A DNA stretch of 64,000 nucleotides, from positions 32,001-96,000 of the IMG/VR virus record IMGVR_UViG_3300009503_000019, one strand, 5' to 3'. The notes below the pieces were generated by a model. That model saw nothing but the letters and a program-made list of their open reading frames with translations, did not search any database and was not told where the DNA came from. Positions within the stretch are counted from its first letter, which is position 1. The number at the start of each line of letters is the position of its first letter. Origin of the DNA: a virus. Positions 2,985-57,070 of this stretch are shown one piece after another. The position numbers were made by a program, and so were the translations under genes.

Positions 2985-3779
2985 TTAATCCATTGCATAA
3001 GTATTTTCAGGCATTGATGCAATAATTTCTTCTAAATCTGGTAATTTTTTGGTTTTTTTCATAGTTTCCAGATGTTTTCTTATTTCAATAGCCCTACAAT
3101 ATCTTTTTACTTCTTCTGGGCAATAAGCACATAATGGACCGAATTCTGCAATTGAATTCGATATATCTTTTGAACCTTCATGAATTGCTTTAATTCTGTC
3201 AATTATAAAGTTTTTAATTTCTGTAGAGTTTTCAATGTCAACTTGAAATCTTTTTACTCCACGCATTGAAATATATATTAATTCTAATCGCTTAATATTG
3301 TCACTATGAGTTTTTTCATACATATATTTGTATAAATTTACTTGTTTTTTATGTGCTTCATATGGATGATATGGAAATTCCGATGTTGTTTTGTAATCTC
3401 TTAAAATTTTATTTTTGATATCAATTTCATCAATTCTTCCTACAATTTTTTCATTGTGTAATAAAAGCTGTACATCATATTCAGTTAATAAATTTTTATT
3501 ACTATGAAATTCTACTGCTAAATGTAATCCAGTTCCTCTAAATTTAAAAAATAGATTTTCAGGTTTTTCTAAGTAATCAATTTGTCTTTTCAATACTTTT
3601 TGTCTTGGACATACTGTCAAATCAGTAACATGAATATCTTCATCCATTCTTTCTTTTATCATACTCCTTAATATACTTGCCGTATAATCACATGGATTAT
3701 CTCCACTTTCTGCACATGTTAAACATTCTTTAACAGTAAATACATTTTTTCTTTTATTACACATTATTCCTTTTATCAT
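2985..3779 (-). CDS. Cas4-like PD-(D/E)xK exonuclease with Fe-S cysteines
   Basis: IHVTDLTVCPRQ, GRIDEID, RDYKTT, QVNLY and C-terminal CAYCP...YC; extra N-terminal CxxC. Confidence 0.8.
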   Translation of the reverse strand: MIKGIMCNKRKNVFTVKECLTCAESGDNPCDYTASILRSMIKERMDEDIHVTDLTVCPRQKVLKRQIDYLEKPENLFFKFRGTGLHLAVEFHSNKNLLTEYDVQLLLHNEKIVGRIDEIDIKNKILRDYKTTSEFPYHPYEAHKKQVNLYKYMYEKTHSDNIKRLELIYISMRGVKRFQVDIENSTEIKNFIIDRIKAIHEGSKDISNSIAEFGPLCAYCPEEVKRYCRAIEIRKHLETMKKTKKLPDLEEIIASMPENTYAMD

Positions 3780-4545
3780 TATATCCTCCTTGTACTAATC
3801 TGATCATATTATAAAATTCATCACAATCATAGAATTTATATTTATCCCCAAAAAATATTCCAAGATATTTAATAGTTTTTTTAGTGAGTATCTTAATTAT
3901 GAAAGATGTTGCTAATGATGCTCCAATGATATTCCATATTGGAAGTATACCATTTCCACAATGTACTTTTGACACGTTATTCTTTGATAACATTATATGC
4001 CATGGGACTATGTCAGTAATTTTGAATCCATCAAATATTTGTTTACCTGATTTATGTCTTATATTATAATATTGTGAGGAATGACTTATTGGAAATAATA
4101 GAGTTTGCCCTCCATTTTCATGAACGCCAGTATCGATGATTGCGATAATTTTTGAAATTAAAAAACGTGAACAATGATGGAATATTTTCAGTCGGGTTTC
4201 GAAGTTATCAACACACAAAACAATAATTGCATACATATTTAAAAAATTATTAATTGCATATTCTATTTTGTTTATTATATAGTACAAATTTGAGTATATT
4301 TTTGAATATCTTTGTGCTATGACCTCAGCTTTATATTTTTTTAAATCACTTTTTATAAAGTTCTGATTTAATAAATTTTTTTCTTCTACTCTATCAAAAT
4401 CTATAACAACAATATCTATATTTTTTAAATTTAATGCAGTTAGATTTCTTGCTAGAAAATTAGTGAGATAACTTCCAGTCGCTCCTGCGCCAACTATAAG
4501 TATGTTTATAGGGGCATCATAATCTTGTAAGTTAGCATATAGCAT
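3757..4545 (-). CDS. ThiF/E1-like adenylating enzyme
   Basis: GAGATG nucleotide loop, DFDRVEEKNLLNQNF, KAEV, CVDN..TR, IDTG, candidate catalytic Cys in VHCG. Confidence 0.85.
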   Translation of the reverse strand: MLYANLQDYDAPINILIVGAGATGSYLTNFLARNLTALNLKNIDIVVIDFDRVEEKNLLNQNFIKSDLKKYKAEVIAQRYSKIYSNLYYIINKIEYAINNFLNMYAIIVLCVDNFETRLKIFHHCSRFLISKIIAIIDTGVHENGGQTLLFPISHSSQYYNIRHKSGKQIFDGFKITDIVPWHIMLSKNNVSKVHCGNGILPIWNIIGASLATSFIIKILTKKTIKYLGIFFGDKYKFYDCDEFYNMIRLVQGGYNDKRNNV

Positions 4546-4546
4546 T

Positions 4547-5056
4547 TTATTCCTCCAGTGCGAGAAATTTTAAAAATACTTCTATGTTAATTTTTTTATA
4601 TAGAAAATTTGGTTTTTGAGAGAACGGCATTAATATAAATTTTTGAACTGCATCTTGTGCTGAATGCGGTATATAGTTGTTATAGCATATAGCTTTAAAT
4701 TCAGGTATTTCTTGAAATCCATCAATTTGATTTGGCATTTGTGGGAATATGCCTATAGATTCATTAGGAGTATTTCTATCTATTATACCAAAAAGGAATG
4801 TCTTTTTATTTTTTAAAACAATAAATAATTTTAAATTAGATGGTATTTCAATTTTTTCTATTATCTTATTATCGTTATTACCATTAATATAATACAGGTA
4901 TTTACTATCAACAAATTTGATGTCCAGAGATTTAATGAATTTATTTTTAAATAATATACTTAGCGGAACAATTTTAGTTCCTTTTATAGTATGGATATAT
5001 GCTACTTTATTTGTGTCGGGGTATATATCCATTTTCTTTGATTTATTCATTATCAT
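4547..5056 (-). CDS. Putative prokaryotic E2-like (family D / PRTRC protein B-like) conjugating enzyme
   Basis: FPQMPNQIDG...AICYN...FILMPFS resembles the APFxNxxxDGxICWG...FFxSPF pattern; adjacent to E1. Confidence 0.55.
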   Translation of the reverse strand: MIMNKSKKMDIYPDTNKVAYIHTIKGTKIVPLSILFKNKFIKSLDIKFVDSKYLYYINGNNDNKIIEKIEIPSNLKLFIVLKNKKTFLFGIIDRNTPNESIGIFPQMPNQIDGFQEIPEFKAICYNNYIPHSAQDAVQKFILMPFSQKPNFLYKKINIEVFLKFLALEE

Positions 5057-5291
5057 CCTCCCATTTGATTGTTATGCCTGTTCCGTTTAATACGAATTTG
5101 ATAAAGGAGTTAATATTTTTATCCCAAAGATATTTTTCATTAGTCAATGTATTTTTTATTTTTTCTGGATATATGAGGATTAAATGTGGGAATAGAAAGA
5201 TATTATATTTTTCAAATGCGGTGCGTAATCGTTCATAGAATTTTGATTTTTCCAAAATTTTATATAAATTCTTCGTCGGTTTCATAATCAC
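5043..5291 (-). CDS. Hypothetical protein in RT-E1-E2 operon
   Basis: ORF overlaps both neighbours. Confidence 0.55.
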   Translation of the reverse strand: MIMKPTKNLYKILEKSKFYERLRTAFEKYNIFLFPHLILIYPEKIKNTLTNEKYLWDKNINSFIKFVLNGTGITIKWEDDNE

Positions 5292-5649
5292 CCTCCAAAG
5301 ACTTTAATTGATTTGCAATTTCTTTTAAAACGTCTATATTTTTATGTATTTCAATAAAAAAATTTATTGCTTTATAAAGATCTTCTTTCAATTTAGGATC
5401 CAATGATAAATCCGGATCGAATTCTAATTTGAAATTATATCCCTTTTCACCAACAATTAATCCGACTTTATAAATAGAATCATCAATTTTTTCTATATTA
5501 TTTTCGTCAATTTTTATGTTAAGTCCGTCTAATTCATGAATAATTTCTTTTTTAATTTCTTCTTCTGACAGGGTATCATTCAATTCCAATACAATTTCAA
5601 AATCTGTGCTTGTTGGGTAGTTAGGACCTACTATTTTAATTTCTTTCAT
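5260..5649 (-). CDS. Putative ubiquitin-like protein (PRTRC protein C-like) with C-terminal extension
   Basis: First 70 aa end IYKVGLIVGEKG, resembling the ..F.RAVGTKG end of PRTRC-C/Prok-Ub proteins; AGGAGG RBS. Confidence 0.5.
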   Translation of the reverse strand: MKEIKIVGPNYPTSTDFEIVLELNDTLSEEEIKKEIIHELDGLNIKIDENNIEKIDDSIYKVGLIVGEKGYNFKLEFDPDLSLDPKLKEDLYKAINFFIEIHKNIDVLKEIANQLKSLEGDYETDEEFI

Positions 5650-5667
5650 TTTAGTACCTCCTTATTT

Positions 5668-6477
5668 TTATTTGTTCATTATTTCTATAATATTTTTCCA
5701 TGAACGGTATCCCATCAATTTTTTGTGAAGATTTTCATCATAATTTTTTTCTAAATGATGCTGTAATCCACGTATGGTATGAGAATGCTTCTGTCGAATT
5801 TTTGCTACGATTTTTCCATCATAATCATCTCTATATATAGTGAATCCAAGCATTTTTACAAATGGTTTGTTTTCAGATTTATATGGAATTTTTCTACATT
5901 TGAATTTTGATATTTTGAAACCGTAGTTTAGTATTGAAGCTACTAAGTATTTATTCATTTTTTTATCTGAGTGAAACATATAAAAATTATCTATATAATT
6001 TATAATTGCTACTGCTTTATATTTAAAAATATAATCAAACATTCTGAATAATTTAAATAAAGCAAATGAAGACAATCTAGGCGAAGTTGGTGCGCCTTGA
6101 GGCAATATTAATTTTCCTTTATATTCAACAAAACATTTTTCTACAATATTTATAAATTTTGAATTGCTCCATTTGTAGAAAATATTTAATAGATAATCTG
6201 GAGTCACATTCGTAAAAAAATTTTTGATATCACACGCTGTTAAGAATATTTCATCGGGATTAGGATCGTAAAATTGTGCGTTAATGAATTTAAATATGTA
6301 GCTTGGAGAACATTTATGTTGACCCAATATTATAGTGTTTTTTAATTTTGGATATTTAATTATTGCTAATTCATGATGTAGAATTTCTTTTTGTTGTTTT
6401 TTTAAATCATCATCTGGAATATGGAGGATTCTAAATCCTCCTTTCCTTTTTGGGATTTTAATAATTTTATACGGCAT
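5668..6477 (-). CDS. Compact reverse transcriptase (retron/UG-like) with YIDN in place of YxDD
   Basis: IPKRKGGFRILHIPDDDLKKQQ, DIKNFF, LPQGAPTSPRLS, NYIDNF, MLGF; GGAGG RBS. Confidence 0.85.
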   Translation of the reverse strand: MPYKIIKIPKRKGGFRILHIPDDDLKKQQKEILHHELAIIKYPKLKNTIILGQHKCSPSYIFKFINAQFYDPNPDEIFLTACDIKNFFTNVTPDYLLNIFYKWSNSKFINIVEKCFVEYKGKLILPQGAPTSPRLSSFALFKLFRMFDYIFKYKAVAIINYIDNFYMFHSDKKMNKYLVASILNYGFKISKFKCRKIPYKSENKPFVKMLGFTIYRDDYDGKIVAKIRQKHSHTIRGLQHHLEKNYDENLHKKLMGYRSWKNIIEIMNK

Positions 6478-6542
6478 GTTTCCTCCGAAATCTGGATTTA
6501 TTATTTGAATTTATAACAAAAAATTGATAAATTTAATGTCAA

Positions 6543-9500
6543 ATGCTGAAAGGGTATATTGAAGCTATTCAGAATCTCTTTCCCATTGATTCCCCAAATT
6601 ATACAATTAATGTATCTAATATAACGCCTAAGATCAAAGAAGATGTTTTTATTCCTGAGAATATAAAAAAAATGAAATTGGAAGGAAAGATTTTGACTAC
6701 TCCTATATATGCAGATGTTACAATTACTGACAAAAATGGTAAAGTTATTAGTTCCAGGAAACAGATGAAGATTGCAGAAATACCTGCACTTATTCCTGCA
6801 ACAAATTCTTATCTTGGAGGTAAAGGTAAAGAAATTACTATATTGGGTCAATTTAGATTCAAGCCAGGAATTTATACTATAATTCCATCTTCTGGTAATG
6901 TTAAAACAACTTTTCATTTAAAAGGTACGAGTTTTCATCTGACAAGCGATGCAGGAAAATTATATTTCACTGTAGATTCAAAACATTTCGCTATCTATCC
7001 AATATTAAAATTTTTTGGTATTACTGATAATGATATTATTAATAATTTTGGAAATAAATTTTTAGAGGATAATAAAATAGATATTTCTCCTGCAGAAATG
7101 GAAAGATTGATAAAGAGATTTTACAAAAATATTTCAAGAGATCAACGTTCCGAAGATGAGATTAGTATCAATGATATTATAACATATTTTTCAGGTAATA
7201 TTTTTGATCCGAATGTAAACAAAGTCACATTAGGTCAGGATTTTTCTCAATTAAATAAAGAAACATTATTAGCAGCTATTAAGAAATTTTTAAATGTTTC
7301 TACTGGAGTTGAACCACCAGATTCAAAAGATTTATTAATATTTAAAAGATTTCATAATGTAAATGATTTTATTAAAGAACGTATAGAAGGTCTTAAATGG
7401 CAATTAAAAAAGAAAATTCAGCGAAATCTTGAATTACATCCAGAGGAGATTCGCCGGGTTTTACCTACTGGATTATTGTCTAAACCATCGTTTGAATTAT
7501 TGAATTCTTCAGTAGCGTCTATGGAAAAATATACTAATCCCGCATCAATATTATCGGCAATGACGAAAATGACTTATCTTGGGGAAGGAGGATTACAGAC
7601 TGAATATGCCGCTACACCAGAAATGCGAAATTTCAATTTTTCTATGCTTTCAACCTTAGATCCTATACAAATGCCAGAGTCTGAGAAAATTGGGTTAGTT
7701 TTTCATGCTGCTTTGGGTGCTAATGTAGATAATCAAGGTAATATAACTAAAATTGTTTTCAATCATAAAACTGGAAAATATGAAACAATAAGTGGAACTG
7801 ATTTCTGGATAAAAAATATTGCTTTTCCTGATCAATATGAAAACGGTAAATTCAAGAATCCAAATTCAGTTAAAGTTATGAATGAAGGTAAAATAAAATA
7901 TGTAAAATCTAAAGATGTAGATTATATTCTTCCTATGAGTACTTCTTTTTCAATGCTTAGTTCGTTAATTCCAATGATTTCATCATTCCATCCTACAAGA
8001 GCTTTAATTGCTTCTAAAATGATTGGGCAAGCTTTGGCATTAAAGAATAAAGAAGCGCCTTTAGTTCAAAGTGAGATCCCTTCAGAATTATTAGAAATCA
8101 GGAAACAATTACATCCTGAATTGACTGGTGCCTTATCTGATCATTTAGAACATTCTAATTCCTTTGAAGAATTATTAGGTGCAAAATATTCTGTTGTTTC
8201 CCCAGTTAATGGAACGGTTACGTTAGTATCCAAAGATGAAATTGTCATTACTGATAAAAAAGGAGAAAAATACAGATTTCCTCTATATAATAATTTTCCC
8301 GTATATCCAGATTCTTTTATTCATCAGGAGCCTATAGTAAAAGTTGGTGATAAAGTTTCAAAAGGGATGCCATTAGCTAAAAGTAATTTTACTGATGGTA
8401 AAACATTAGCATTAGGTACTAATTTATTAACGGCTTATATACCTTTTAAAGGGTATAATTATGAAGATGCTATAGTTATATCAGAGAGTGCATCAAAAAA
8501 ATTGACTTCAGAAAGAATTATACATGAATATTTTGAAATTCGAGAGGGTATGATTCTTGATAAAAATAAATTTAGAGCAATTTTTCCAACATTATTATTA
8601 GAAGAAAATGCACGCAAATTAGATGATGATGGTGTAGTCAAAAAAGGAGCAATTGTTAAAAAAGGAGAAATTTTAATTGCGGCATTAATGCCTCGTATTA
8701 TAACTCCAGATGAATATCAACTTATGCGTATACACAGGAAATTAGTGCCTAAGTATCGTGATGCTTCATTAGTATGGAATAGGGAGAACGACGGAGAAGT
8801 TATAGAAGTGCGCAAAACAAGACATTCAATAAGTTTATTAATAAAAACATCAGATCCTGCTGAGATTGGTGATAAATTGGTAGGACGATTTGGTGAAAAA
8901 GGGCTCATTGCTTATATAGTTCCAGATAGTGAAATGCCAAGAACTAAAGATGGAAAGGTAATTGATGTCATTTTTAATCCATTAAGTGTTATTTCAAGAA
9001 TTAATACTGGACAATTAGTAGAACTTGCATTAGGTAAAGTTGCTCAGAAACAAGGAAAACCAATTTATGTTCCTTTATTCACAAAACAAAATTATGTAGA
9101 ATATGCAAAAAAATTATTGAAAGATCATGGATTATCCGACACCGAAACATTAATTGATCCAAAAACTGGAAAAGAAATACCTAATGTGATGGTTGGTCCA
9201 AAATATATATTTAAATTGGAACATGAGATTAAAGATAAATTAGATGCTCGTTACAAAGGTTCTTACGATATGGATTTAGCACCTGCTAGACAAGGAGAAG
9301 AAGGGGCAAAAGCATTAGATACTTATACTGCATATGGATTATTTGCACATGGAGCACTAGCAAATTTAAAAGAAATGGCAACATATAAAGCAGAGAAGAA
9401 TGATGCATTCTGGGATGCAATTGAAAATGGTTTTATGTTGCCAGCACCTAAACCTACATTTGCAATGGATAAATTTTTAGCAATGTTAAAATCTGCAGGG

Positions 9501-12500
9501 ATAAATGTTGAAAAACAAGGTACAACTTTTAGATTATTACCCCTAACTGATAAAGATGTCACTGAAATTGCAAAAATAAAAATAGAAAATCCGAGGACGG
9601 TATCTGGTGCAGAATTAAAACCCGAAAAAGGAGGTTTATTTGACCCGGCATTAGGAGGATTAACAGGAACACGCTGGGGATATATTCAATTAGCTGAACC
9701 GATGCCAAATCCTATCGTAGAAAAAGCATTATTACAAATATTACAATTAAGTTCTGCTCAATTTGAAGATTTGATTGCTGGTAAAACTGTTAATGGTATT
9801 CAAGGAATAGAAGGATTAAAACAATACTTAAAAAATTTAGATATTGATAAATTAATTACTCAGTATCAAGAAATGGCAAAGAATGCTCGTTTAGATGAAT
9901 TGGATAAATATAATAGAATAATAAGATTTTTAAAAGGACTAAAAGAAGCTAAAATAAAACCAGAATCATTAATAATAACAAAAATACCAGTAATTCCACC
10001 AAAAATGAGACCTATTTATGTGAAAGATGATCAGGTTATTTATTCTCCATTTAATGACTTGTATAAGCATTTATTGATGGCAAATGAATTATTAGAAAGA
10101 ACAAAAGAACTTCCTGAAGAACATCGTGCTTCTATACGATTAAAAGCTTATGAAGCCTTAAAAGCTATTGCAGGATTAACTGACCCCATTTCACCTGCAT
10201 TTTCAAAACGGCCTGTTCAAGGAATTTTATCAATGATTGCAGGTCCAACTCCTAAATTAGGATATTTTCAGTCTAAACTTGCACGTAAAGAGCAAGATTT
10301 AGTAGGAAGAACTGCAATTATTCCAGAACCAGATTTACATCCTGATGAAGTTGGATTGCCGTATGAGATTGCATGGAAGATATTTGAACCATTTGTTATT
10401 CGTAAACTTATTCAGCAAGGATATACAAAAATTCAAGCTGTTAAGAATGTAGAAGATAGAACTCCTATAGCAAAAGCTGCATTAGAAGCAGTTGCAAAAG
10501 AAAGATTAGTTTTATTAAATAGAGCACCAAGTTTGCATAAATATAATATACTTGCATTCAAACCCAGACTCATTGAAGGAAATGCAATGAAAATACCTCC
10601 ATTAGTTGTTGTTGGCTTTAATGCTGATTTTGATGGCGATGAGCAGCTAGGGTCGATATTGATTTCAGTTAAAAAAGATTTTAAATTACAGAAATGGTAT
10701 TTAGATTTGATAAAAACTGGGGCCAGAATAATGTTCGATAAAAATGCGAAAATACCCATTAAATCAGATCGTGAATATTTTATTATTAATCTTGCGGATT
10801 TTCCGAGACTTCATTTAGTAGCTTCTAAAAATCATATAGATTTTTATGCAGTTCCAGACGATATTGAAGTACTGGCATACGACGAGAAAATTCATACGAT
10901 TTCATGGCAAAAAGCGACTTCATGGTCGTTACATCATAAAAGAAAAATTTGTTTTATCAATTTGAAATCAGGCAAACAAATTGTGTCTGATGATGATCCA
11001 AGGGCAGTTTATGGGATAGATCCAGTTACATTAGAATACGGACGGTGGAGACCTGCAGAAAGTATTGGTAAATTAGTGCCGGTTGTAAAAAATTTGAAAT
11101 TGCAAGAATATGTAAAGCAAATAAGCACCAAAGGTTGTCCTTACTGGAAATTGAAGAATTGTCTAAAAGAAACAATAGAATTGAATGAGGAATTTGGTTA
11201 CTTACTTGGTTATATTATAGGCGACGGCTGGATATCTTATACAAAAGACGAAGAAAAAAATGTAAGCATTGCTATTGATCCAAAAAATTCAGAGCTCAAA
11301 AAACATTTGATTTCAATAACGAAAAAACTTTTCAATAAAAAATATAATCTCATTAGTGAACAAAAAGTATCAAAATCAAAGTGGCAATCTTCCAAAATAA
11401 CAATCAATTCCAAACAACTTGCATGGTTAATTTCTCCATGGATTGGTAAAAATGCAGAAAATAAACATTTACCTCCATTTACATTAATTTCTCCGGAAGA
11501 ATTCAGACGAGGATTATTAGCTGGTTTAATTGATTCAGATGGTAGCATCTCAATCTCTCATGCTAAGTCCAAACCACAATTACTTATAAATTTATCAACT
11601 GCAAGCATACGACTGGCACAGGAAATACAATTGCTAGCAAAAAGTTTAGGAATCCCTGCTTCTATAACTGCATATAATGGTGGAATGAAAAATAGCAAAA
11701 ATTATATGATTAATTTTTCTAATTATCATTTCCAGAAAGCTAATTTGAATATTAAACATCCTGAAAAAAGAAGAAAATTGTTATCAATTTCGATTGAATC
11801 TTCTCCTGGTTTGATGTCTCATGATTTAGTTCCATTTAATTCAACACTGGCGGAAATTATTATGAAACGAATAAATCGCAATAAAGAATGGAGTTTGTAT
11901 GTAATAGTGCAGAGGTATAAAAATTTGAATTATATAACTCGTTCTTCAGCATTAAAAATTCTAAAAATTGTTGATAATGATGATCCATTATTTTTGAGAT
12001 GGAAGCAGATTGTATTGAATGATTCAATAACATGGGATCCCGTAGTTTCTTATGAACAAACTGATATTGAAGAAGATGGTTATGATATCACCGTTCCAGG
12101 ATACGAAACATTTATGAACATTGAAGGAGTGATTTTATCAAACACAATGACTATTCATACTCCTGTAACTCAGGAAGCATTAGAAGAAGCACGTAGACTT
12201 TTGCCTTCAAATAACTGGGTACATGAAGCAAAAGGGACTATATTATTGATGCCACGTCATGAGGCAATTATTGGAATCTACAGATTGACTTCTGAAGGAC
12301 GCCAATTGAATATTACTTTCAACAATGAAAAGGAAGTGGAGGATGCTTATAAAGCAAATAAGATAAATTTCAATGATATTGTCAATGTCAAGGGAATAGG
12401 CAGGACGTCGTTTGGAAGAATAATTGTTAATAAAGTTTTACCTCCTGAATTGAGAGATTATAAATCTCAAATTGATGGTTCCAAATTACATGACATATTG

Positions 12501-14039
12501 ATGAAAATTTTTAGACGAGACCAAAAATTAGGAACTGATATTTCACATTATCTTGACAAAATAGGTAAAGAATTTGCATACTTATCTGGATATAGTTTAA
12601 GTTTGGATGATATAACACCAATTGATTTATCTGATATAAATCGTAAAATCAGAGAAACTATGCCGAAATTATCTTCTGATAAAGAAAGGCAAAAATTTTT
12701 ATCAGAATTAGCAGATAAAATAGATCAAAGGGTAATGTCTTCTAAAAGCCGATTAGTAGAGGCAATTAAATCTCGTGCAAGAGGAAAAGTTATTGATGCT
12801 AGACAAATTATAGGTGCACCTATTGTTGCAACTGATATTAATGACAATATTATACCCGCTCCTGTGAATACCAGTTATGCAGCAGGAATGTCTTTTTCAG
12901 ATTGGTTTAAATCAATATTTGGAGGAAGAAAAGCGGCAATAGATAAAGTAACTTCAGTGAGTGAACCTGGGATGATGACTAAAGAATTATTTTCAGCAAT
13001 GTCTTCATTTCGTATAGTAGAGCATGATTGCGGAACTAAAAATGGTGTTGAAATGGATTTAAATGAAGCGGATGCGTTAGATTATTGTTTAGCAGAAAAT
13101 ATTTATTCTCATGGAAGATTAATAGCAAAAAGGAATTCACCATTAACTTCAGATGTTGTAAATGCCTTAGTTGCACACAAAATAAATAGAGTTAAAGTTA
13201 GAACACCATTAACATGTGAATCCATAGATGGAGTTTGTCAATTATGTTATGGATTGGATAAATTCGGGCAATTTCCATCAATTGGAGAATATGTTGGAAT
13301 TAAAGCTGCACAATATATAGGCGAGCCGATGACACAATTAATTCTTTCAAGAGCCCATTTTGGTGGAACCAAAGGTGCACCATCATTACAGGGATATAAA
13401 TTATTTGAAAACATATTAAATTTTTCACCTTCAATTCGTCCTCGTGCAACACTTGCTAAATTAGATGGGAGAGTTCAAAAAATTTTGATTAATCCGGACG
13501 GATCTAAAGATGTGTTAATAGATGGAGTTAGTCATCCTGTTTCAAGAGAAAGTGTGGTTACAGTTAAAACTGGAGAAATTGTAAAAAAAGGACAACAAAT
13601 TTCAGAAGGAATTCCGCATCCTGTAGATGTATATGCTACTAGAGGGATGATGGAAATGAGAAAATATTTGTCAGAGCAATTAAGAAAAATATATTATGAT
13701 AATGGACTTAAAGTGGATAAAAGAATGTTTGATGTATTGGCAAAGGCTATGACAAATACCGGAATTATTACTGATCCTGGTGATTCTGATTATATAATAG
13801 GAGATAAAGTTTCAATAGATAAAATAGAAAATAAAAATAAAGAATTGAAGCACCCAATAAAATATACACCTGTTTTTCGTGGATTGCCCCATCAAGTCTT
13901 GCTTTCAACAGATTGGTTGAATAGAATTTCAAGAAAGGATATAAAAAATACATTGGTAGAAGGAACGATTAGGCAGTGGACTGGAGATATTTCAAGGTAT
14001 CCAATACCTGCATTCGCTTATGGAGTTGAGCTAAAGTGA
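6543..14039 (+). CDS. rpoBC: DNA-directed RNA polymerase, fused beta-beta' subunits, intein-containing
   Basis: Beta motifs GDKLVGRFGEKG, NPLSVISRIN, YIFKLEH. Beta' motifs GGLFDP, PVIPPKMRP, LNRAPSLHK, NADFDGD, DCG, CQLCYG, GEPMTQ. Confidence 0.95.
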   Translation: MLKGYIEAIQNLFPIDSPNYTINVSNITPKIKEDVFIPENIKKMKLEGKILTTPIYADVTITDKNGKVISSRKQMKIAEIPALIPATNSYLGGKGKEITILGQFRFKPGIYTIIPSSGNVKTTFHLKGTSFHLTSDAGKLYFTVDSKHFAIYPILKFFGITDNDIINNFGNKFLEDNKIDISPAEMERLIKRFYKNISRDQRSEDEISINDIITYFSGNIFDPNVNKVTLGQDFSQLNKETLLAAIKKFLNVSTGVEPPDSKDLLIFKRFHNVNDFIKERIEGLKWQLKKKIQRNLELHPEEIRRVLPTGLLSKPSFELLNSSVASMEKYTNPASILSAMTKMTYLGEGGLQTEYAATPEMRNFNFSMLSTLDPIQMPESEKIGLVFHAALGANVDNQGNITKIVFNHKTGKYETISGTDFWIKNIAFPDQYENGKFKNPNSVKVMNEGKIKYVKSKDVDYILPMSTSFSMLSSLIPMISSFHPTRALIASKMIGQALALKNKEAPLVQSEIPSELLEIRKQLHPELTGALSDHLEHSNSFEELLGAKYSVVSPVNGTVTLVSKDEIVITDKKGEKYRFPLYNNFPVYPDSFIHQEPIVKVGDKVSKGMPLAKSNFTDGKTLALGTNLLTAYIPFKGYNYEDAIVISESASKKLTSERIIHEYFEIREGMILDKNKFRAIFPTLLLEENARKLDDDGVVKKGAIVKKGEILIAALMPRIITPDEYQLMRIHRKLVPKYRDASLVWNRENDGEVIEVRKTRHSISLLIKTSDPAEIGDKLVGRFGEKGLIAYIVPDSEMPRTKDGKVIDVIFNPLSVISRINTGQLVELALGKVAQKQGKPIYVPLFTKQNYVEYAKKLLKDHGLSDTETLIDPKTGKEIPNVMVGPKYIFKLEHEIKDKLDARYKGSYDMDLAPARQGEEGAKALDTYTAYGLFAHGALANLKEMATYKAEKNDAFWDAIENGFMLPAPKPTFAMDKFLAMLKSAGINVEKQGTTFRLLPLTDKDVTEIAKIKIENPRTVSGAELKPEKGGLFDPALGGLTGTRWGYIQLAEPMPNPIVEKALLQILQLSSAQFEDLIAGKTVNGIQGIEGLKQYLKNLDIDKLITQYQEMAKNARLDELDKYNRIIRFLKGLKEAKIKPESLIITKIPVIPPKMRPIYVKDDQVIYSPFNDLYKHLLMANELLERTKELPEEHRASIRLKAYEALKAIAGLTDPISPAFSKRPVQGILSMIAGPTPKLGYFQSKLARKEQDLVGRTAIIPEPDLHPDEVGLPYEIAWKIFEPFVIRKLIQQGYTKIQAVKNVEDRTPIAKAALEAVAKERLVLLNRAPSLHKYNILAFKPRLIEGNAMKIPPLVVVGFNADFDGDEQLGSILISVKKDFKLQKWYLDLIKTGARIMFDKNAKIPIKSDREYFIINLADFPRLHLVASKNHIDFYAVPDDIEVLAYDEKIHTISWQKATSWSLHHKRKICFINLKSGKQIVSDDDPRAVYGIDPVTLEYGRWRPAESIGKLVPVVKNLKLQEYVKQISTKGCPYWKLKNCLKETIELNEEFGYLLGYIIGDGWISYTKDEEKNVSIAIDPKNSELKKHLISITKKLFNKKYNLISEQKVSKSKWQSSKITINSKQLAWLISPWIGKNAENKHLPPFTLISPEEFRRGLLAGLIDSDGSISISHAKSKPQLLINLSTASIRLAQEIQLLAKSLGIPASITAYNGGMKNSKNYMINFSNYHFQKANLNIKHPEKRRKLLSISIESSPGLMSHDLVPFNSTLAEIIMKRINRNKEWSLYVIVQRYKNLNYITRSSALKILKIVDNDDPLFLRWKQIVLNDSITWDPVVSYEQTDIEEDGYDITVPGYETFMNIEGVILSNTMTIHTPVTQEALEEARRLLPSNNWVHEAKGTILLMPRHEAIIGIYRLTSEGRQLNITFNNEKEVEDAYKANKINFNDIVNVKGIGRTSFGRIIVNKVLPPELRDYKSQIDGSKLHDILMKIFRRDQKLGTDISHYLDKIGKEFAYLSGYSLSLDDITPIDLSDINRKIRETMPKLSSDKERQKFLSELADKIDQRVMSSKSRLVEAIKSRARGKVIDARQIIGAPIVATDINDNIIPAPVNTSYAAGMSFSDWFKSIFGGRKAAIDKVTSVSEPGMMTKELFSAMSSFRIVEHDCGTKNGVEMDLNEADALDYCLAENIYSHGRLIAKRNSPLTSDVVNALVAHKINRVKVRTPLTCESIDGVCQLCYGLDKFGQFPSIGEYVGIKAAQYIGEPMTQLILSRAHFGGTKGAPSLQGYKLFENILNFSPSIRPRATLAKLDGRVQKILINPDGSKDVLIDGVSHPVSRESVVTVKTGEIVKKGQQISEGIPHPVDVYATRGMMEMRKYLSEQLRKIYYDNGLKVDKRMFDVLAKAMTNTGIITDPGDSDYIIGDKVSIDKIENKNKELKHPIKYTPVFRGLPHQVLLSTDWLNRISRKDIKNTLVEGTIRQWTGDISRYPIPAFAYGVELK
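10641..12143 (+). mobile_element. Intein with LAGLIDADG homing endonuclease (501 aa) in RNAP active-site motif
   Basis: Insert between NADFDGD and TMTIHTP. Ends GYDITVPGYETFMNIEGVILSN/T. Contains LLGYIIGDG and LLAGLIDSDG motifs. Confidence 0.9.
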
Positions 14040-14506
14040 TTGTATGTAAAAATTATACTATAGTTTCTGGTGTTGGTAGAGATGAAGATGAACTTGTTGC
14101 ATTTGATAAAGCATTAAAAAGTGCAGGATTGCATAGATTTAATTTAGTGCCTGTTTCAAGTGTGTTTCCTACTTTAGCTGAATATCATCCGCCAAGAGAT
14201 TTGAAGGAACTTGATCGTGGGGCAATCATTCATGTTGTTTTGAGTAAAATAAATGTGAAAAAAGAATTTGTAGATATATCGGCAGGAATTTGTTTAGCAA
14301 TTTCCAAAATAAGTGGTGGAGGGATCATAAGTGAATATTCGGGAGAAGTAAATAAGGAAAAATGTAAATCTATTCTAAGGGAAAGAGCCAATAAAATTGC
14401 AGAAACTCACGATCTTTTTGATATGACTATGGAATTTGAAATAATGAGTGCAAAATCTAATCCTGTAACTTATACTTGTTGTATAGCGGCAGTAGTTTTA
14501 TGGTGA
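14036..14506 (+). CDS. pdaD: Pyruvoyl-dependent arginine decarboxylase
   Basis: AFDKALKSAGLHRFNLVPVSSVFP with Ser-Ser self-cleavage site; IISEYSG glutamate. Confidence 0.85.
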   Translation: MIVCKNYTIVSGVGRDEDELVAFDKALKSAGLHRFNLVPVSSVFPTLAEYHPPRDLKELDRGAIIHVVLSKINVKKEFVDISAGICLAISKISGGGIISEYSGEVNKEKCKSILRERANKIAETHDLFDMTMEFEIMSAKSNPVTYTCCIAAVVLW

Positions 14507-29588: not shown

Positions 29589-29917
29589 CAGGACCAGAAA
29601 AAATAAGAACTTTATTTAAAGTAGCTTCACAAGTGATAATTAAACTTGCAAATGAGAATAAACAATTGAAAGCTAAATTAGATTATTATGAGAAAAGGGC
29701 TAAAGCGGAGAAAATAGTGGATAAATTGATTCGTGCTGGGCATCTTTCAGAATTTCAAAAAGAAGCAAAGATAAATGAATTGATGAAAGATGATCTCAAA
29801 GCATGGGAAAAAGCAGCTTCTTTAGTATCGACAATGACTTCGTTAGGAGAAACCGTATCTCCAGTTCAATCAAATGATGCAGAAAATGAACTCATTAAAG
29901 CTTTATTGAGTTCGTAA
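29585..29917 (+). CDS. Coiled-coil scaffold-like protein
   Basis: KVAS, KLANENKQLKAKL coiled coil, directly upstream of decoration/MCP genes. Confidence 0.55.
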   Translation: MTGPEKIRTLFKVASQVIIKLANENKQLKAKLDYYEKRAKAEKIVDKLIRAGHLSEFQKEAKINELMKDDLKAWEKAASLVSTMTSLGETVSPVQSNDAENELIKALLSS

Positions 29918-29938
29918 AAAAAAGAAGGAGGTTAAAAT

Positions 29939-31841: not shown

Positions 31842-32111
31842 ATGTATAATTATTTTCTAGCACAAGCTTTAATTAAAGAAGCAACGGCGTTAGAGCTTTT
31901 AAGGGAAGCGCGATTATTAAAATTAGCTGCTCGTGAAAGTTCTCTAACTCCTGAAGAAAAACTTCGTCTAATAGGACGTGGTGCATTATATGGAGGCCTA
32001 GTAGGACTTCCAGTTGCAATATCTGGCATAGTAGCTAAAGATCCAGAACTTGCAGCAATACCTATAGGAACTGCAATTTTAGGTTCTATTGTATCAAGAT
32101 CACTATTTTGA
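31842..32111 (+). CDS. KEATA-leader paralog with two hydrophobic helices
   Basis: QALIKEATALELLREARLLKLA leader. Confidence 0.65.
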   Translation: MYNYFLAQALIKEATALELLREARLLKLAARESSLTPEEKLRLIGRGALYGGLVGLPVAISGIVAKDPELAAIPIGTAILGSIVSRSLF

Positions 32112-54712: not shown

Positions 54713-57070
54713 TCACTCTCCTATTTTTATTTCATCTATTTTTTTCAATTTATCTAAAGAATACCCTATTGAACAATCGATAACAAATGGAAGGGTCAAT
54801 TCAATTTTATATATTTCTTTTAACATATTTTTTATTTTTTCAGTTTCAGATTTTAAGATTTCTATCGTTTGCTTTACTGAATTTTCTGGTATTTCGAAAA
54901 GAAATCCATCATGTACTGCCATACAAAAGTATCCTTTTATTTTTGGGCGTAATTTAGAAATAATGAATAAAGCTAAATCTGATGCAGTAGATTGTACCAT
55001 ATAATTGAATGCATATCTTGTCATTTCTGATAAAGATGAAGGGGAATATTTAAGAATATCCATTTTTCTTGTTCTTCCAAATGGATTTTTCACCATGTTT
55101 TTGGTGTTTATTTCATTAACTATTTCCCTTTTCCATGCTACAATATAAGAAAACATAGAACGGAATTTATCATAAAATTTAGTTGCAGTGTTTTCTGATA
55201 CTTTCAATCTATTTGCTAATGACTTAATTCCCATACCATACATCAATCCAAATACAATAGTTTTAGCTTTTTTTCTTTCTTCTTTAGAAACTTCTTCATA
55301 TTTCTTTTTCCATACTGTAGCCGCTGCCCATGTATGAACATCTATATTATTTTTGATTAAATCAATCATTTTTTTATCATTAGCTAATAATGCATATGTT
55401 CTAACTTCAATTTGTGAAAAGTCTAAATTCATAAAAATATGTCCCTCTCTCGGAACGATATATGGATATATTGCTGGAGGTAAATTTTGCATATTTGGAT
55501 TAGATGAACTGATTCTACCAGATACTGTCCCATAAATATAATATTCTCCATGTATGCGATCATGATTATTACCATTTAATCGTTCTAAAAAAGGATTAAC
55601 ATATGTTGATAAAATTTTAAATAATTTTCTATAATTTGATACTAATTTCAAGAATGGAATTTTAGATTTTATATTCTCAACCGTTTCCTCATTCATACTG
55701 GAAATATCAAGATTATATTTGGATAATATAGGTGAGTAGTATTTTGTTAAAAAATCTTTCAATTGGATATGAGAATTTATGTTAAATTCTGGTATCTCTG
55801 GTATTTTCTTCTTATATTTTGACTTTTCCTTTTCAAATAAATAATTTCTATATGCTTGCACTTTGGGCAATGAATTTATTTTTTCTAATATTTTTTTAAT
55901 CTTATTTTCTAATTTTTGTTTGAATATTTTTAATCTTTCATAATCAATTTTAATACCAGTTTGTTCTAATTCCGGAATTAGAGAAACTGCCCATTTATTT
56001 GAAATATATTTATATAAATTAATCTTATTTTCTTTTTTAGCAAGAAGATAATATTTTTTAAATAGACTTAATGTATAAAAAGCGTCTAAAGCACAATACT
56101 TTATTTTAGTCTCGTCAATTTCAGGAATAGTTTTCAAGCTATCGTCTATGTCCCATTTTTCAATGTTATTATCAATTGCAATAGATTTTAATGAATAAGA
56201 ATCTCTACCTTCTTCAATTAAATGAACTAATGGAAGTAAATCATATATAGGTCCTGACACATTTATGTATTTCTTTAAAAATGGGACATCATATTTGGCA
56301 TTGAAACAAATTTTTTTGAGTTTTGAATTGAATATTGGTTCCAATTCTTTAATGTCTATATAATTGAGATTGAAAAAATATGCAATTTTTGCTTTATTTG
56401 CTGGAACTATGCTCAATGCATAAATTTTATCTCTTTGTATATCTAATCCCGTTGCTTCTATATCAAAAGAAAACATTTTATGTAATAAAATTTGCTTAAT
56501 AGCTTCAGGAACTCCTTGTGGGGAAACATTTACTATTTGTAATCCTTCCTCTGGAGATTCTTTTTTTTCATATAAAAATCGTTCCAAATCTTTAATAAAA
56601 ATAGTTATTAATTCTGGATTTCTCAATATTTCTGCAGGATGATATGTAAAATATATTTTAGCATTGAATTTGTTTTCGGTTTCTAATCTCAATTTTTCTA
56701 TTTTCTTTGGTTTTTTTAAAATGAATTTCGCTGCAGTTGCTCCTAAATAAATTATTTTTTCAGGCTTAATTGTTTTTATTTCTTCTAATAGAATAGAAGA
56801 ACAACACTCTATTTCTTTTGGTTTAGGAGTTCTATTTTTAGGCGGTCTACATTTTATCACATTAGTAATATACATTAAATCTTGTGATATTTTAAAGGAT
56901 CCAAGAACTTGTCTTAAAAGTGTTCCAGATTTTCCCACAAATGGTTTCAATTGAATTTCTTCAGACGCTCCGGGTGCTTCACCTATTATCATAATCTTTG
57001 CATTAGATGGTCCTTCGCCAGGAACTATTCTTTGAGATAATCCACAAGGATTCTTACATTCTATTTTCAT
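54713..57070 (-). CDS. polA: Family A DNA polymerase with N-terminal family-4 uracil-DNA glycosylase domain
   Basis: UDG: GEAPG, PFVGKSG, NVIKCRPPKNR, TYHPA. Exonuclease: FDIEATG, FNAKYD, YCALD. Polymerase: DFSQIEVR, RKKAKTIVFGLMYG, VHD. Confidence 0.95.
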   Translation of the reverse strand: MKIECKNPCGLSQRIVPGEGPSNAKIMIIGEAPGASEEIQLKPFVGKSGTLLRQVLGSFKISQDLMYITNVIKCRPPKNRTPKPKEIECCSSILLEEIKTIKPEKIIYLGATAAKFILKKPKKIEKLRLETENKFNAKIYFTYHPAEILRNPELITIFIKDLERFLYEKKESPEEGLQIVNVSPQGVPEAIKQILLHKMFSFDIEATGLDIQRDKIYALSIVPANKAKIAYFFNLNYIDIKELEPIFNSKLKKICFNAKYDVPFLKKYINVSGPIYDLLPLVHLIEEGRDSYSLKSIAIDNNIEKWDIDDSLKTIPEIDETKIKYCALDAFYTLSLFKKYYLLAKKENKINLYKYISNKWAVSLIPELEQTGIKIDYERLKIFKQKLENKIKKILEKINSLPKVQAYRNYLFEKEKSKYKKKIPEIPEFNINSHIQLKDFLTKYYSPILSKYNLDISSMNEETVENIKSKIPFLKLVSNYRKLFKILSTYVNPFLERLNGNNHDRIHGEYYIYGTVSGRISSSNPNMQNLPPAIYPYIVPREGHIFMNLDFSQIEVRTYALLANDKKMIDLIKNNIDVHTWAAATVWKKKYEEVSKEERKKAKTIVFGLMYGMGIKSLANRLKVSENTATKFYDKFRSMFSYIVAWKREIVNEINTKNMVKNPFGRTRKMDILKYSPSSLSEMTRYAFNYMVQSTASDLALFIISKLRPKIKGYFCMAVHDGFLFEIPENSVKQTIEILKSETEKIKNMLKEIYKIELTLPFVIDCSIGYSLDKLKKIDEIKIGE

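Follow-up and report, generated by a model that had tools for sequence, protein, structure and literature searches.

Textbook reverse transcriptases (RTs) need all three of their aspartates. PRTRC, a ParB-related, ThiF-related cassette (NCBIfam TIGR03735-03742; Pfam Prok-E2_D, Prok-JAB and Prok_Ub), is carried by plasmids and integrative elements. Retrons consist of an RT, an msr-msd noncoding RNA (ncRNA) and an effector, form branched msDNA that starts at the 2'-OH of a priming G, and have been divided into 13 types (Mestre et al. 2020, PMC7736814). We analysed a stretch of viral DNA of 64,000 nucleotides, positions 32,001 to 96,000 of the IMG/VR virus record IMGVR_UViG_3300009503_000019 (the whole stretch is called the window here and the full record G000), and our subject is an RT gene within it that best matches those of retrons, shares an operon with a ThiF-family gene of the PRTRC type, and reads YIDN instead of YxDD at motif C. 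We believe, with a probability of about 0.6, that the gene encodes a selected, minimal retron-type RT that is still templated and uses two remote RNAs, within a dispersed cassette of RT and ubiquitin-like genes.

The RT gene (P0001; 5668..6477, minus strand) encodes 269 aa, and its assignment as a minimal retron type comes from the translation and from matches to Pfam RVT_1, PADLOC, NCBIfam and solved structures. RVT_1 matches across its entire profile (48.8 bits, E 9e-13); there is neither an N-terminal extension nor a C-terminal extra domain, and the thumb takes up about 55 aa after motif E. A preliminary description of the stretch, drawn up from the sequence alone, had reported that DIKNFF and LPQGAPTSP are intact and that motif C is encoded by TAT ATA GAT AAT, and the translation bears this out: motif A, DIKNFF, occupies residues 83-88 (6214..6231, minus strand), motif B, LPQGAPTSP, residues 125-133 (6079..6105, minus strand), and motif C, YIDN, residues 161-164 (5986..5997, minus strand). 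The catalytic Asp83 of motif A is invariant in our alignments A1 and A3. Motifs D and E are intact as well, the lysine of motif D being K193 and kept in 165 of the 169 aligned RTs; residues 8-18 read IPKRKGGFRIL and residues 210-212 LGF. The same description rightly had the retron signatures VTG and NAxxH as missing. In retrons NAxxH belongs to region X and is best conserved at its H, and VTG belongs to RT7 and is best conserved at its G (Mestre et al. 2020). At the place of VTG the RT reads MLG, with the G kept in 161 of the 169 sequences and L found at the middle position in 35 of them, and the histidine of NAxxH, present in 157 of 169, is not conserved in the clade, whose five members have S, Y, H, Y and K. 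Across this clade, over 47% divergence, D83, Q127, G128, Y161, D163, K193 and G211 are conserved.

The profile matches agree on the class of the enzyme. In PADLOC the best match is retron RT_II-A (1.6e-17), followed by III-A and I-A, with VI also among the best; the 25 matches listed comprise retron RTs, generic models of RTs and a Cas1 fusion of the CRISPR-associated kind, and no UG/Abi or DRT model stands among these best 25. The best NCBIfam match is retron_St85_RT (1.4e-18), an exception-type model whose cut-off of 235 bits is far above the 67 bits reached here, and the solved structures matched are retron RTs in nine cases out of nine. No diversity-generating retroelement appears among the RT profile matches, and motif B is LPQGAPTSP, not of the I/LGxxxSQ type; the group II intron RT/maturase model TIGR04416 reaches only 39.5 bits where its cut-off is 300, and the window holds no intron RNA. 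On these matches we assign the RT to the retron/retron-like RT clade. Within it, the window RT and its close homologues form a long branch of unstable placement, which FastTree puts beside E1-linked RTs with YCDN or YADG and IQ-TREE beside YVDN RTs of the P0006 type; because the two trees disagree, we draw no conclusion on the sister group. A tblastn search with P0001 against 50,697 GenBank phages gave only three weak matches, of 25-28% identity.

Close relatives of the RT are few, and all of them share its unusual motif. A search of 5.8 billion proteins returned four close homologues (P0002-P0005, with 67, 66, 56 and 53% identity), beyond which the scores drop to E 1e-14; only one of the four was recovered among 1.84 billion cluster representatives. 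The preliminary description had proposed a family-level variant, a proposal that would have fallen had the close homologues all carried YxDD. When aligned, all four carry YIDN, within NYIDNFY[ML], and the proposal stands. The codons of the motif differ synonymously between phages, being TAT ATA GAT AAT in the window, TAT ATC GAC AAT in the related contig L002 and TAC ATT GAC AAC in L003, and dN/dS of the RT is 0.17-0.19 against both, with synonymous sites near saturation. Judged by these homologues, YIDN is a fixed and selected character of the whole small clade, which rules out both a private mutation and a sequencing error as its source.

Nor is the change peculiar to this RT. In the 169 nearest RT sequences compared, the last residue of motif C is Asp in 143, Asn in 22, Glu in two and Gly in two; the Asn class reads [YF]xDN and the others YxDE and YxDG. 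On the FastTree phylogeny of these sequences the Asn state needs eight changes, and the well-supported branches force at least three. The window clade is one of several independent retron-like RT lineages with Asn, Gly or Glu for the second Asp of YxDD. Three further positions, R160, N137 and D144 (the R of TRYADD, the N of LSN and the D seven residues beyond), accompany YADD in 92% of the relatives and are often changed in the Asn RTs; as all three are changed here, it is the surroundings of the active site that have been remodelled and not one residue alone. A literature search for YxDN-type motif names returned only E. coli gene names, and type VI retrons were ruled out as a YxDN group, their RTs being YADD.

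Some of these relatives have features of their own. Directly upstream of the YVDN RTs of the P0006 type on contigs L006, L103 and L105 lie strongly structured RNAs (L006 1556-1810, L103 266-530 and L105 150-415, found by folding) with z of -4.6 to -7.4 and long-range closing stems. The RNAs of L006 and L103 have a hairpin in common, with a compensatory change from C-G to G-C, and L006 also carries a divergent RNaseH_like (PF04308) gene. The YVDN RTs P0107, P0095 and P0054 sit on contigs of 1.4-2 kb, too short for their neighbours to be seen. An RT with YADG (P0093; the motif is also found in P0102) is encoded within 1-4301 of contig L010, behind a ThiF-like gene and two E2_D-like genes, and its third carboxylate is replaced by a residue without a side chain.

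Whether a YxDN enzyme can work may be judged from Ty1. The preliminary description had taken loss of the second Asp usually to impair RTs severely, to which there is a direct counter-example: the Ty1 RT with the second D of YXDD changed to N (D211N) polymerises in vitro, with kpol lowered about 223-fold, dNTP binding unchanged and Mn2+ preferred, while no activity is left with D211E or when the other two Asp are changed (Pandey, Patel and Gabriel, PMC2148107). The D211N enzyme cannot support transposition (PMC2148107). The residue and the substitution are those of the window RT; the difference is that the former is an engineered mutant of a eukaryotic long terminal repeat retrotransposon, whereas Asn in the window clade is the natural and conserved state of a bacterial-type RT. 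In the L polymerases of Mononegavirales, motif C is GDN, its last Asp being naturally Asn, and the enzyme is active. These too are a natural palm-domain family with Asn as the last residue of motif C; as RNA-dependent RNA polymerases, however, they are related to the window RT by the palm fold only. Because Ty1 D211N is active, the other catalytic residues are conserved and the YVDN RTs have adjacent RNAs, we consider a slower, working, templated RT the likeliest, and a short retron DNA needs no fast polymerase. In such an enzyme, the polymerisation of DNA on an RNA template would rely on Asp83 and Asp163 together with the carbonyl of Asn164. As with Ty1 D211N, it would probably be slower, and the preferred metal may be a different one.

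A conventional retron would have its msr-msd contiguous with the RT gene, and here all the adjoining noncoding space consists of 65 nt upstream and 18 nt downstream. The upstream part, a divergent intergenic region (6478..6542) between the start of the RT and the ATG of an RNA polymerase gene, carries the RT's ribosome-binding site, GGAGG, 5 nt ahead of its ATG (6482-6486, minus strand) and the promoter motif TTTTTTGTTATAAA 33 nt before its start (6510-6523, minus strand); with the gap filled by these two elements there is no room for msr-msd, and the remark in the preliminary description that 65 nt are too few is confirmed. Rfam matched nothing in the window except one tRNA. The promoter is of a class that belongs to the phage itself: the promoter-like motif TTGTTATAAA, or TTTTTGTTATAAA, has 14 copies in the 121-kb record against 2.8 expected, most of them 20-35 nt before a ribosome-binding site and ATG, and one at G000 38519 (minus strand), which is window position 6519.

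The absence of an adjacent ncRNA, stated in the preliminary description, holds for the vicinity of the RT only; elsewhere in the genome, a tandem pair of retron-like RNAs lies at G000 29,658-29,920, that is 2,081-2,343 nt before the start of the window. The pair is on the minus strand, as is the RT, 7.7 kb downstream of the RT stop with about ten genes between, and is the only one of its kind found in the record, just as the RT is the only RT found there. The two units are built alike: a1/a2 repeats form a closing stem, inside which stand an 8-bp hairpin that is conserved and a longer one that is variable. The closing inverted repeat is GGAAGAUAGA/UCUAUCUUC in unit 1 and AAAGAUAGG/CCUAUCUUU in unit 2, and the conserved hairpin GCUAUUG-AUAU-CGAUAGC and GCCAUUG-UUAU-CGAUGGC, respectively. 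In both units, remote from the RT as they are, a1/a2 repeats enclose msr stem-loop(s) and an msd hairpin in the way known from retrons. The pair folds at -72.3 kcal/mol (z -7.6) and ends in a U-run. TTTTTGTTATAAA precedes a small open reading frame that runs into it.

A homologous pair is found in the same relative place in L003 (18609-18899, plus strand), the RT of which is 66% identical. Its z is -9.3, TTTTTGTTATAAA directly precedes its unit 1, and its conserved hairpins and closing stems match those of G000, while the variable hairpins are of entirely different sequence and are hairpins still. Taken over all four units, 98.7% of cells are paired, a share that falls to 34-56% once the partners are slid, and six of 19 pairs change on both sides; an invariant U-G pair means that the structure exists only on the strand of the RT. 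Rfam matched no family at the RNA locus. Scans of viral and metagenome contigs with DNA patterns for the conserved hairpin gave only chance matches inside coding sequence, and the RNA family is therefore known from two independent phages. The two remote RNAs would serve as templates for the RT, and the variable hairpin would be copied into short single-stranded DNA.

The RT itself opens an operon that is driven by this promoter motif. Next to the RT comes a 129-aa protein (5260..5649, minus strand) for which AF2, Foldseek and ESM Atlas together suggest an N-terminal beta-grasp domain of about 65 aa and a helical tail. Residues 1-64 are modelled at pLDDT 80-89 with beta-beta-alpha-beta-beta topology, the top Foldseek matches are ubiquitin, SUMO, NEDD8 and GB1, albeit weak (E 0.1-0.3), and ESM Atlas places it near Ufm1, DWNN and PRTRC protein C. 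The ortholog in L002 (10805-11023, plus strand) is a putative free-standing beta-grasp of 72 aa that ends in GIRGGNKSRL, with Gly-Gly near the end; the versions of the window and L003 add a helical extension of about 60 aa. The modelled fold hints, weakly, that the 129-aa protein may be ubiquitin-like. It is followed by an 82-aa protein (5043..5291, minus strand), conserved in L003 at 50% identity and without a match in Pfam, NCBIfam, PHROG or PADLOC, and by a 169-aa protein (4547..5056, minus strand) with two homologues only and a conserved MPNQID...KAIC motif; to see in this motif an E2-like HPN...Cys is only a guess. Since AF2 gives the 169-aa protein a pLDDT of 53.5 and its best VIA Z is 3.8, we assign no fold to it, and ESM Atlas held no usable match. 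In hhalign comparisons with the cassette E2_D, JAB and ThiF alignments, the 169-, 129- and 82-aa proteins reach probabilities of 0.1-0.2 (0.1 for the 169-aa protein against E2_D), and neither PF14460 nor the cassette E2_D model matches anywhere in the record.

The next gene is clearer. At 3757..4545 (minus strand), in the same operon as the RT and 1.1 kb from it, is encoded an E1-like adenylyltransferase of the ThiF family and PRTRC type, 262 aa long (Pfam ThiF, 1.1e-21). Its best NCBIfam match is PRTRC_ThiF, TIGR03736 (8.4e-20), at 71.1 bits below the 144.75-bit cut-off, and it also matches ThiF genes that stand beside RTs in other phage contigs. The last operon gene encodes a Cas4-like PD-(D/E)XK nuclease of 264 aa (2985..3779, minus strand; Pfam PDDEXK_1 9.7e-9, PADLOC Cas4 2.7e-11). 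Far from these, 64 kb from the RT operon, a JAB/JAMM protein of 221 aa with HSHx9Sx2D is encoded at G000 102,275-102,940 (minus strand; 70275-70940 in window coordinates, outside the window), where the cassette JAB model matches G000 102,278-102,988 at 1.1e-11; the gene has the TTTTTGTTATAAA promoter in front and is followed by an AAA ATPase.

Three diverged phages retain the order of RNA polymerase, divergent RT, 129/137-aa, 82-aa and 169-aa proteins, ThiF and PD-(D/E)XK nuclease, and the linkage of RT and ThiF is found in L003-L005. Between window 3757-6477 and L003 10001-12749, the five genes from RT to ThiF are 50-66% identical, compared with 89% for the RNA polymerase, 86% for the Cas4-like nuclease and 81-83% for other neighbours of the same two phages. 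The module from RT to ThiF changes more quickly than the core, in the manner of genes engaged in conflict; with an identity like that of core genes, the nuclease may be a core phage gene outside the module. Right after the nuclease, L003, L004 and L005 have an intein/HNH gene (327 aa; L003 13531-14514, minus strand) that is not there in the window.

We fetched 74 RT loci from IMG/VR phage contigs, using an alignment as the query (a peptide-pattern scan from P0001 alone gave none), and about 22 of them are flanked by a ThiF, in many cases along with E2_D and JAB. Three arrangements of RT and ThiF occur, RT-E2_D-JAB-ThiF, E2_D-JAB-ThiF-RT and ThiF-RT, and the pairing of an RT with ubiquitin-like genes is seen on contigs L012, L018, L023, L024, L039, L040 and L067. 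In one case the gene of a relative with YCDN (P0024, on L007 and L012) stands ahead of those for a Prok-E2_D-like protein, a JAB with HSHx7Sx2D and ThiF. Most cassette RTs are YADD or YSDD; YxDN is found only in the window clade and in the clade of L007, L012 and L023, and L010 has YADG. As most ThiF-linked RTs are YADD, the association of RT and E1 is broad in large phages and independent of YxDN. A literature search for RTs paired with ThiF, JAB, PRTRC or ubiquitin-like genes found nothing relevant.

Several considerations weigh against the reading that we favour. Activity, RNA and DNA product are all deduced from assembled contigs of DNA runs; the link between RT and RNAs depends on architecture, on strand, on promoters of one class and on their being found together in just two independent phages; and the E2-like and ubiquitin-like assignments are weak. 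With the second Asp lost, R160, N137 and D144 changed alongside it, and the NAxxH histidine and the VT of VTG gone, the surroundings of the active site are so remodelled that RT activity should not be taken for granted. The YADG relatives tolerate a residue without a side chain there, which fits dispensability of the third carboxylate and fits loss of catalysis just as well. The lost residues and the YADG relatives would suit an RT kept as a non-catalytic scaffold, an RNA-binding subunit or sensor that binds the retron-like RNAs or some other RNA and controls the E1 and ubiquitin-like step, and type VI retrons do neutralise their toxin without catalysis (10.1101/2025.10.22.683967). We hold this unlikely: a pure scaffold needs none of D83, Y161, D163, QG..SP, K193 and G211, all kept over the 47% divergence of the clade; the same D-to-N change leaves the Ty1 RT active (PMC2148107); the variable RNA hairpin remains a hairpin although its sequence changes, which is how a copied msd should behave; and even in type VI retrons defence still needs catalysis (10.1101/2025.10.22.683967). 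That the motif stems from a private mutation, from a sequencing error or from the decay of a pseudogene has nothing in its favour beyond its oddity, and the chance of it is practically nil, given the synonymously recoded YIDN of four homologues from separate samples, an open frame with ribosome-binding site and promoter, a dN/dS of about 0.18 and an independent run that contains pieces identical to the RT locus.

Two other alternatives concern the template. The preliminary description had thought of protein priming or untemplated addition. AbiK, DRT4 or DRT9 are cases of synthesis that is primed by protein or needs no template, and the unusual motif C together with the want of an adjacent template RNA could be so understood. 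We find no support for this and consider it very unlikely, as the best profile and solved-structure matches are all to retron RTs, with no UG/Abi or DRT model among the 25 PADLOC matches listed, the protein of 269 aa has no C-terminal extra domain, the genome does contain retron-like RNAs, and YxDN relatives have structured RNAs next to them. Alternatively, the RT may be active and the remote pair not its template, the RNAs forming an independent phage small-RNA locus and the RT copying some other RNA of phage or host. The distance of 7.7 kb and about ten genes, the co-occurrence in two phages only and the lack of an Rfam match are what one would expect in that case, and because fourteen promoters of the class exist, the shared promoter is weak evidence for a bond between RT and RNAs. 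However, closing stem, conserved hairpin and variable hairpin make up the very architecture that retron RTs use, the RNAs are on the strand of the RT, the record has this one RT and this one RNA pair, and the 65 nt upstream and 18 nt downstream leave no space for another dedicated RNA; a template elsewhere therefore strikes us as distinctly unlikely. Overall, the interpretation given in the preliminary description is partly supported.

We thus return to a slow, templated RT with two remote RNAs. On that reading the locus would be a scattered version of the phage cassette in which an RT is combined with genes for ubiquitin-like tagging, and the complex of RT and RNA, possibly with DNA, would most likely be a sensor or regulator of the tagging step in conflict between host and phage or between phages. 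One could go further and see the scattered genes as a single system, in which the slow YxDN RT makes short DNA from its two dedicated RNAs, the nucleoprotein gates, or is the target of, ubiquitin-like conjugation (E1, ubiquitin-like protein and JAB) directed against host defences or rival phages, and the loss of the third carboxylate is an adaptive tuning common to several retron-like lineages. Such a full scheme is tentative, and as a whole we think it rather unlikely.

The genome in which all this is found is that of a large tailed phage from a hot spring. The record has 121 kb, an estimated completeness of 66% and 30% G+C, and the four contigs listed as containing it all come from DNA runs labelled hot springs metagenome. 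The window also encodes a terminase, a DnaB-like helicase and a PolA-UDG fusion, the last a family A DNA polymerase with an N-terminal uracil-DNA glycosylase domain fused on (54713-57070, minus strand). The RT adjoins a phage RNA polymerase in a large phage of lytic type, and not a bacterial defence island. This divergent neighbour, a fusion of beta and beta' of 2,498 aa (6543-14039, plus strand, with its ATG at 6543), has a LAGLIDADG intein inside its beta' part, and its L002 ortholog, of 1,995 aa, is without the intein. Directly behind it stands a gene for a pyruvoyl-dependent arginine decarboxylase (14036-14506, plus strand), conserved in L002 and L003.

The case is of interest whichever way the enzyme behaves, for here are natural lineages of retron-type RTs with Asn, Gly or Glu in place of the third aspartate, under purifying selection and with well-kept presumed partner RNAs. 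If the RT is active, this RT branch can do with two carboxylates, and retron engineering gains natural variants that are slow or shifted in their metal; if it is inactive, it is a natural case of an RT retained as an RNA-binding regulator. In large phages, moreover, reverse transcription and ubiquitin-like tagging are paired repeatedly, and the gene belongs to this pairing, on which we found no paper; were the parts one coupled system, reverse transcription would be tied directly to protein tagging. That the parts of a system may work from separate places in a genome bears on how such systems are searched for.

Set against the systems already described, the locus has much in common with retrons. 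Its RT has its best matches there and shares LPQGAPTSP, the lysine of motif D and the G of VTG; its operon has accessory genes; and the presumed RNAs are closed by an a1/a2 stem and contain both a conserved stem-loop and a hairpin that varies. It departs from them in having YIDN instead of YADD, in lacking the NAxxH histidine, the VT and an N-terminal extension, in having its RNAs as a tandem duplicate 7.7 kb from the RT, and in a putative ubiquitin-like protein and an E1 that belong to none of the 13 types. To PRTRC it is linked by an E1 whose best match is PRTRC_ThiF, a JAB of the Prok-JAB/PRTRC_A kind and a 129-aa protein that has PRTRC protein C as a structural neighbour; the scores, however, are below the curated cut-offs, the RT and ncRNAs have no counterpart in PRTRC, and the carrier is a phage. 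Domain scans found no ParB among the operon proteins, a search of the whole record for ParB not having been made. With the phage cassettes of RT and ubiquitin-like genes it has in common a retron-type RT and PRTRC-type E1 in one operon, a putative beta-grasp protein, a JAB that matches the cassette model and a large phage as host genome. In this phage, however, the genes are scattered: the RNAs lie at 29.7 kb of the record, the operon spans 35-38.5 kb and the JAB is encoded at 102 kb. Two unrelated small proteins take the place of a recognisable E2_D. What this phage carries, in our view, is an RT of retron type whose YxDN box is natural, along with remote tandem RNAs and probable ubiquitin-like partners.

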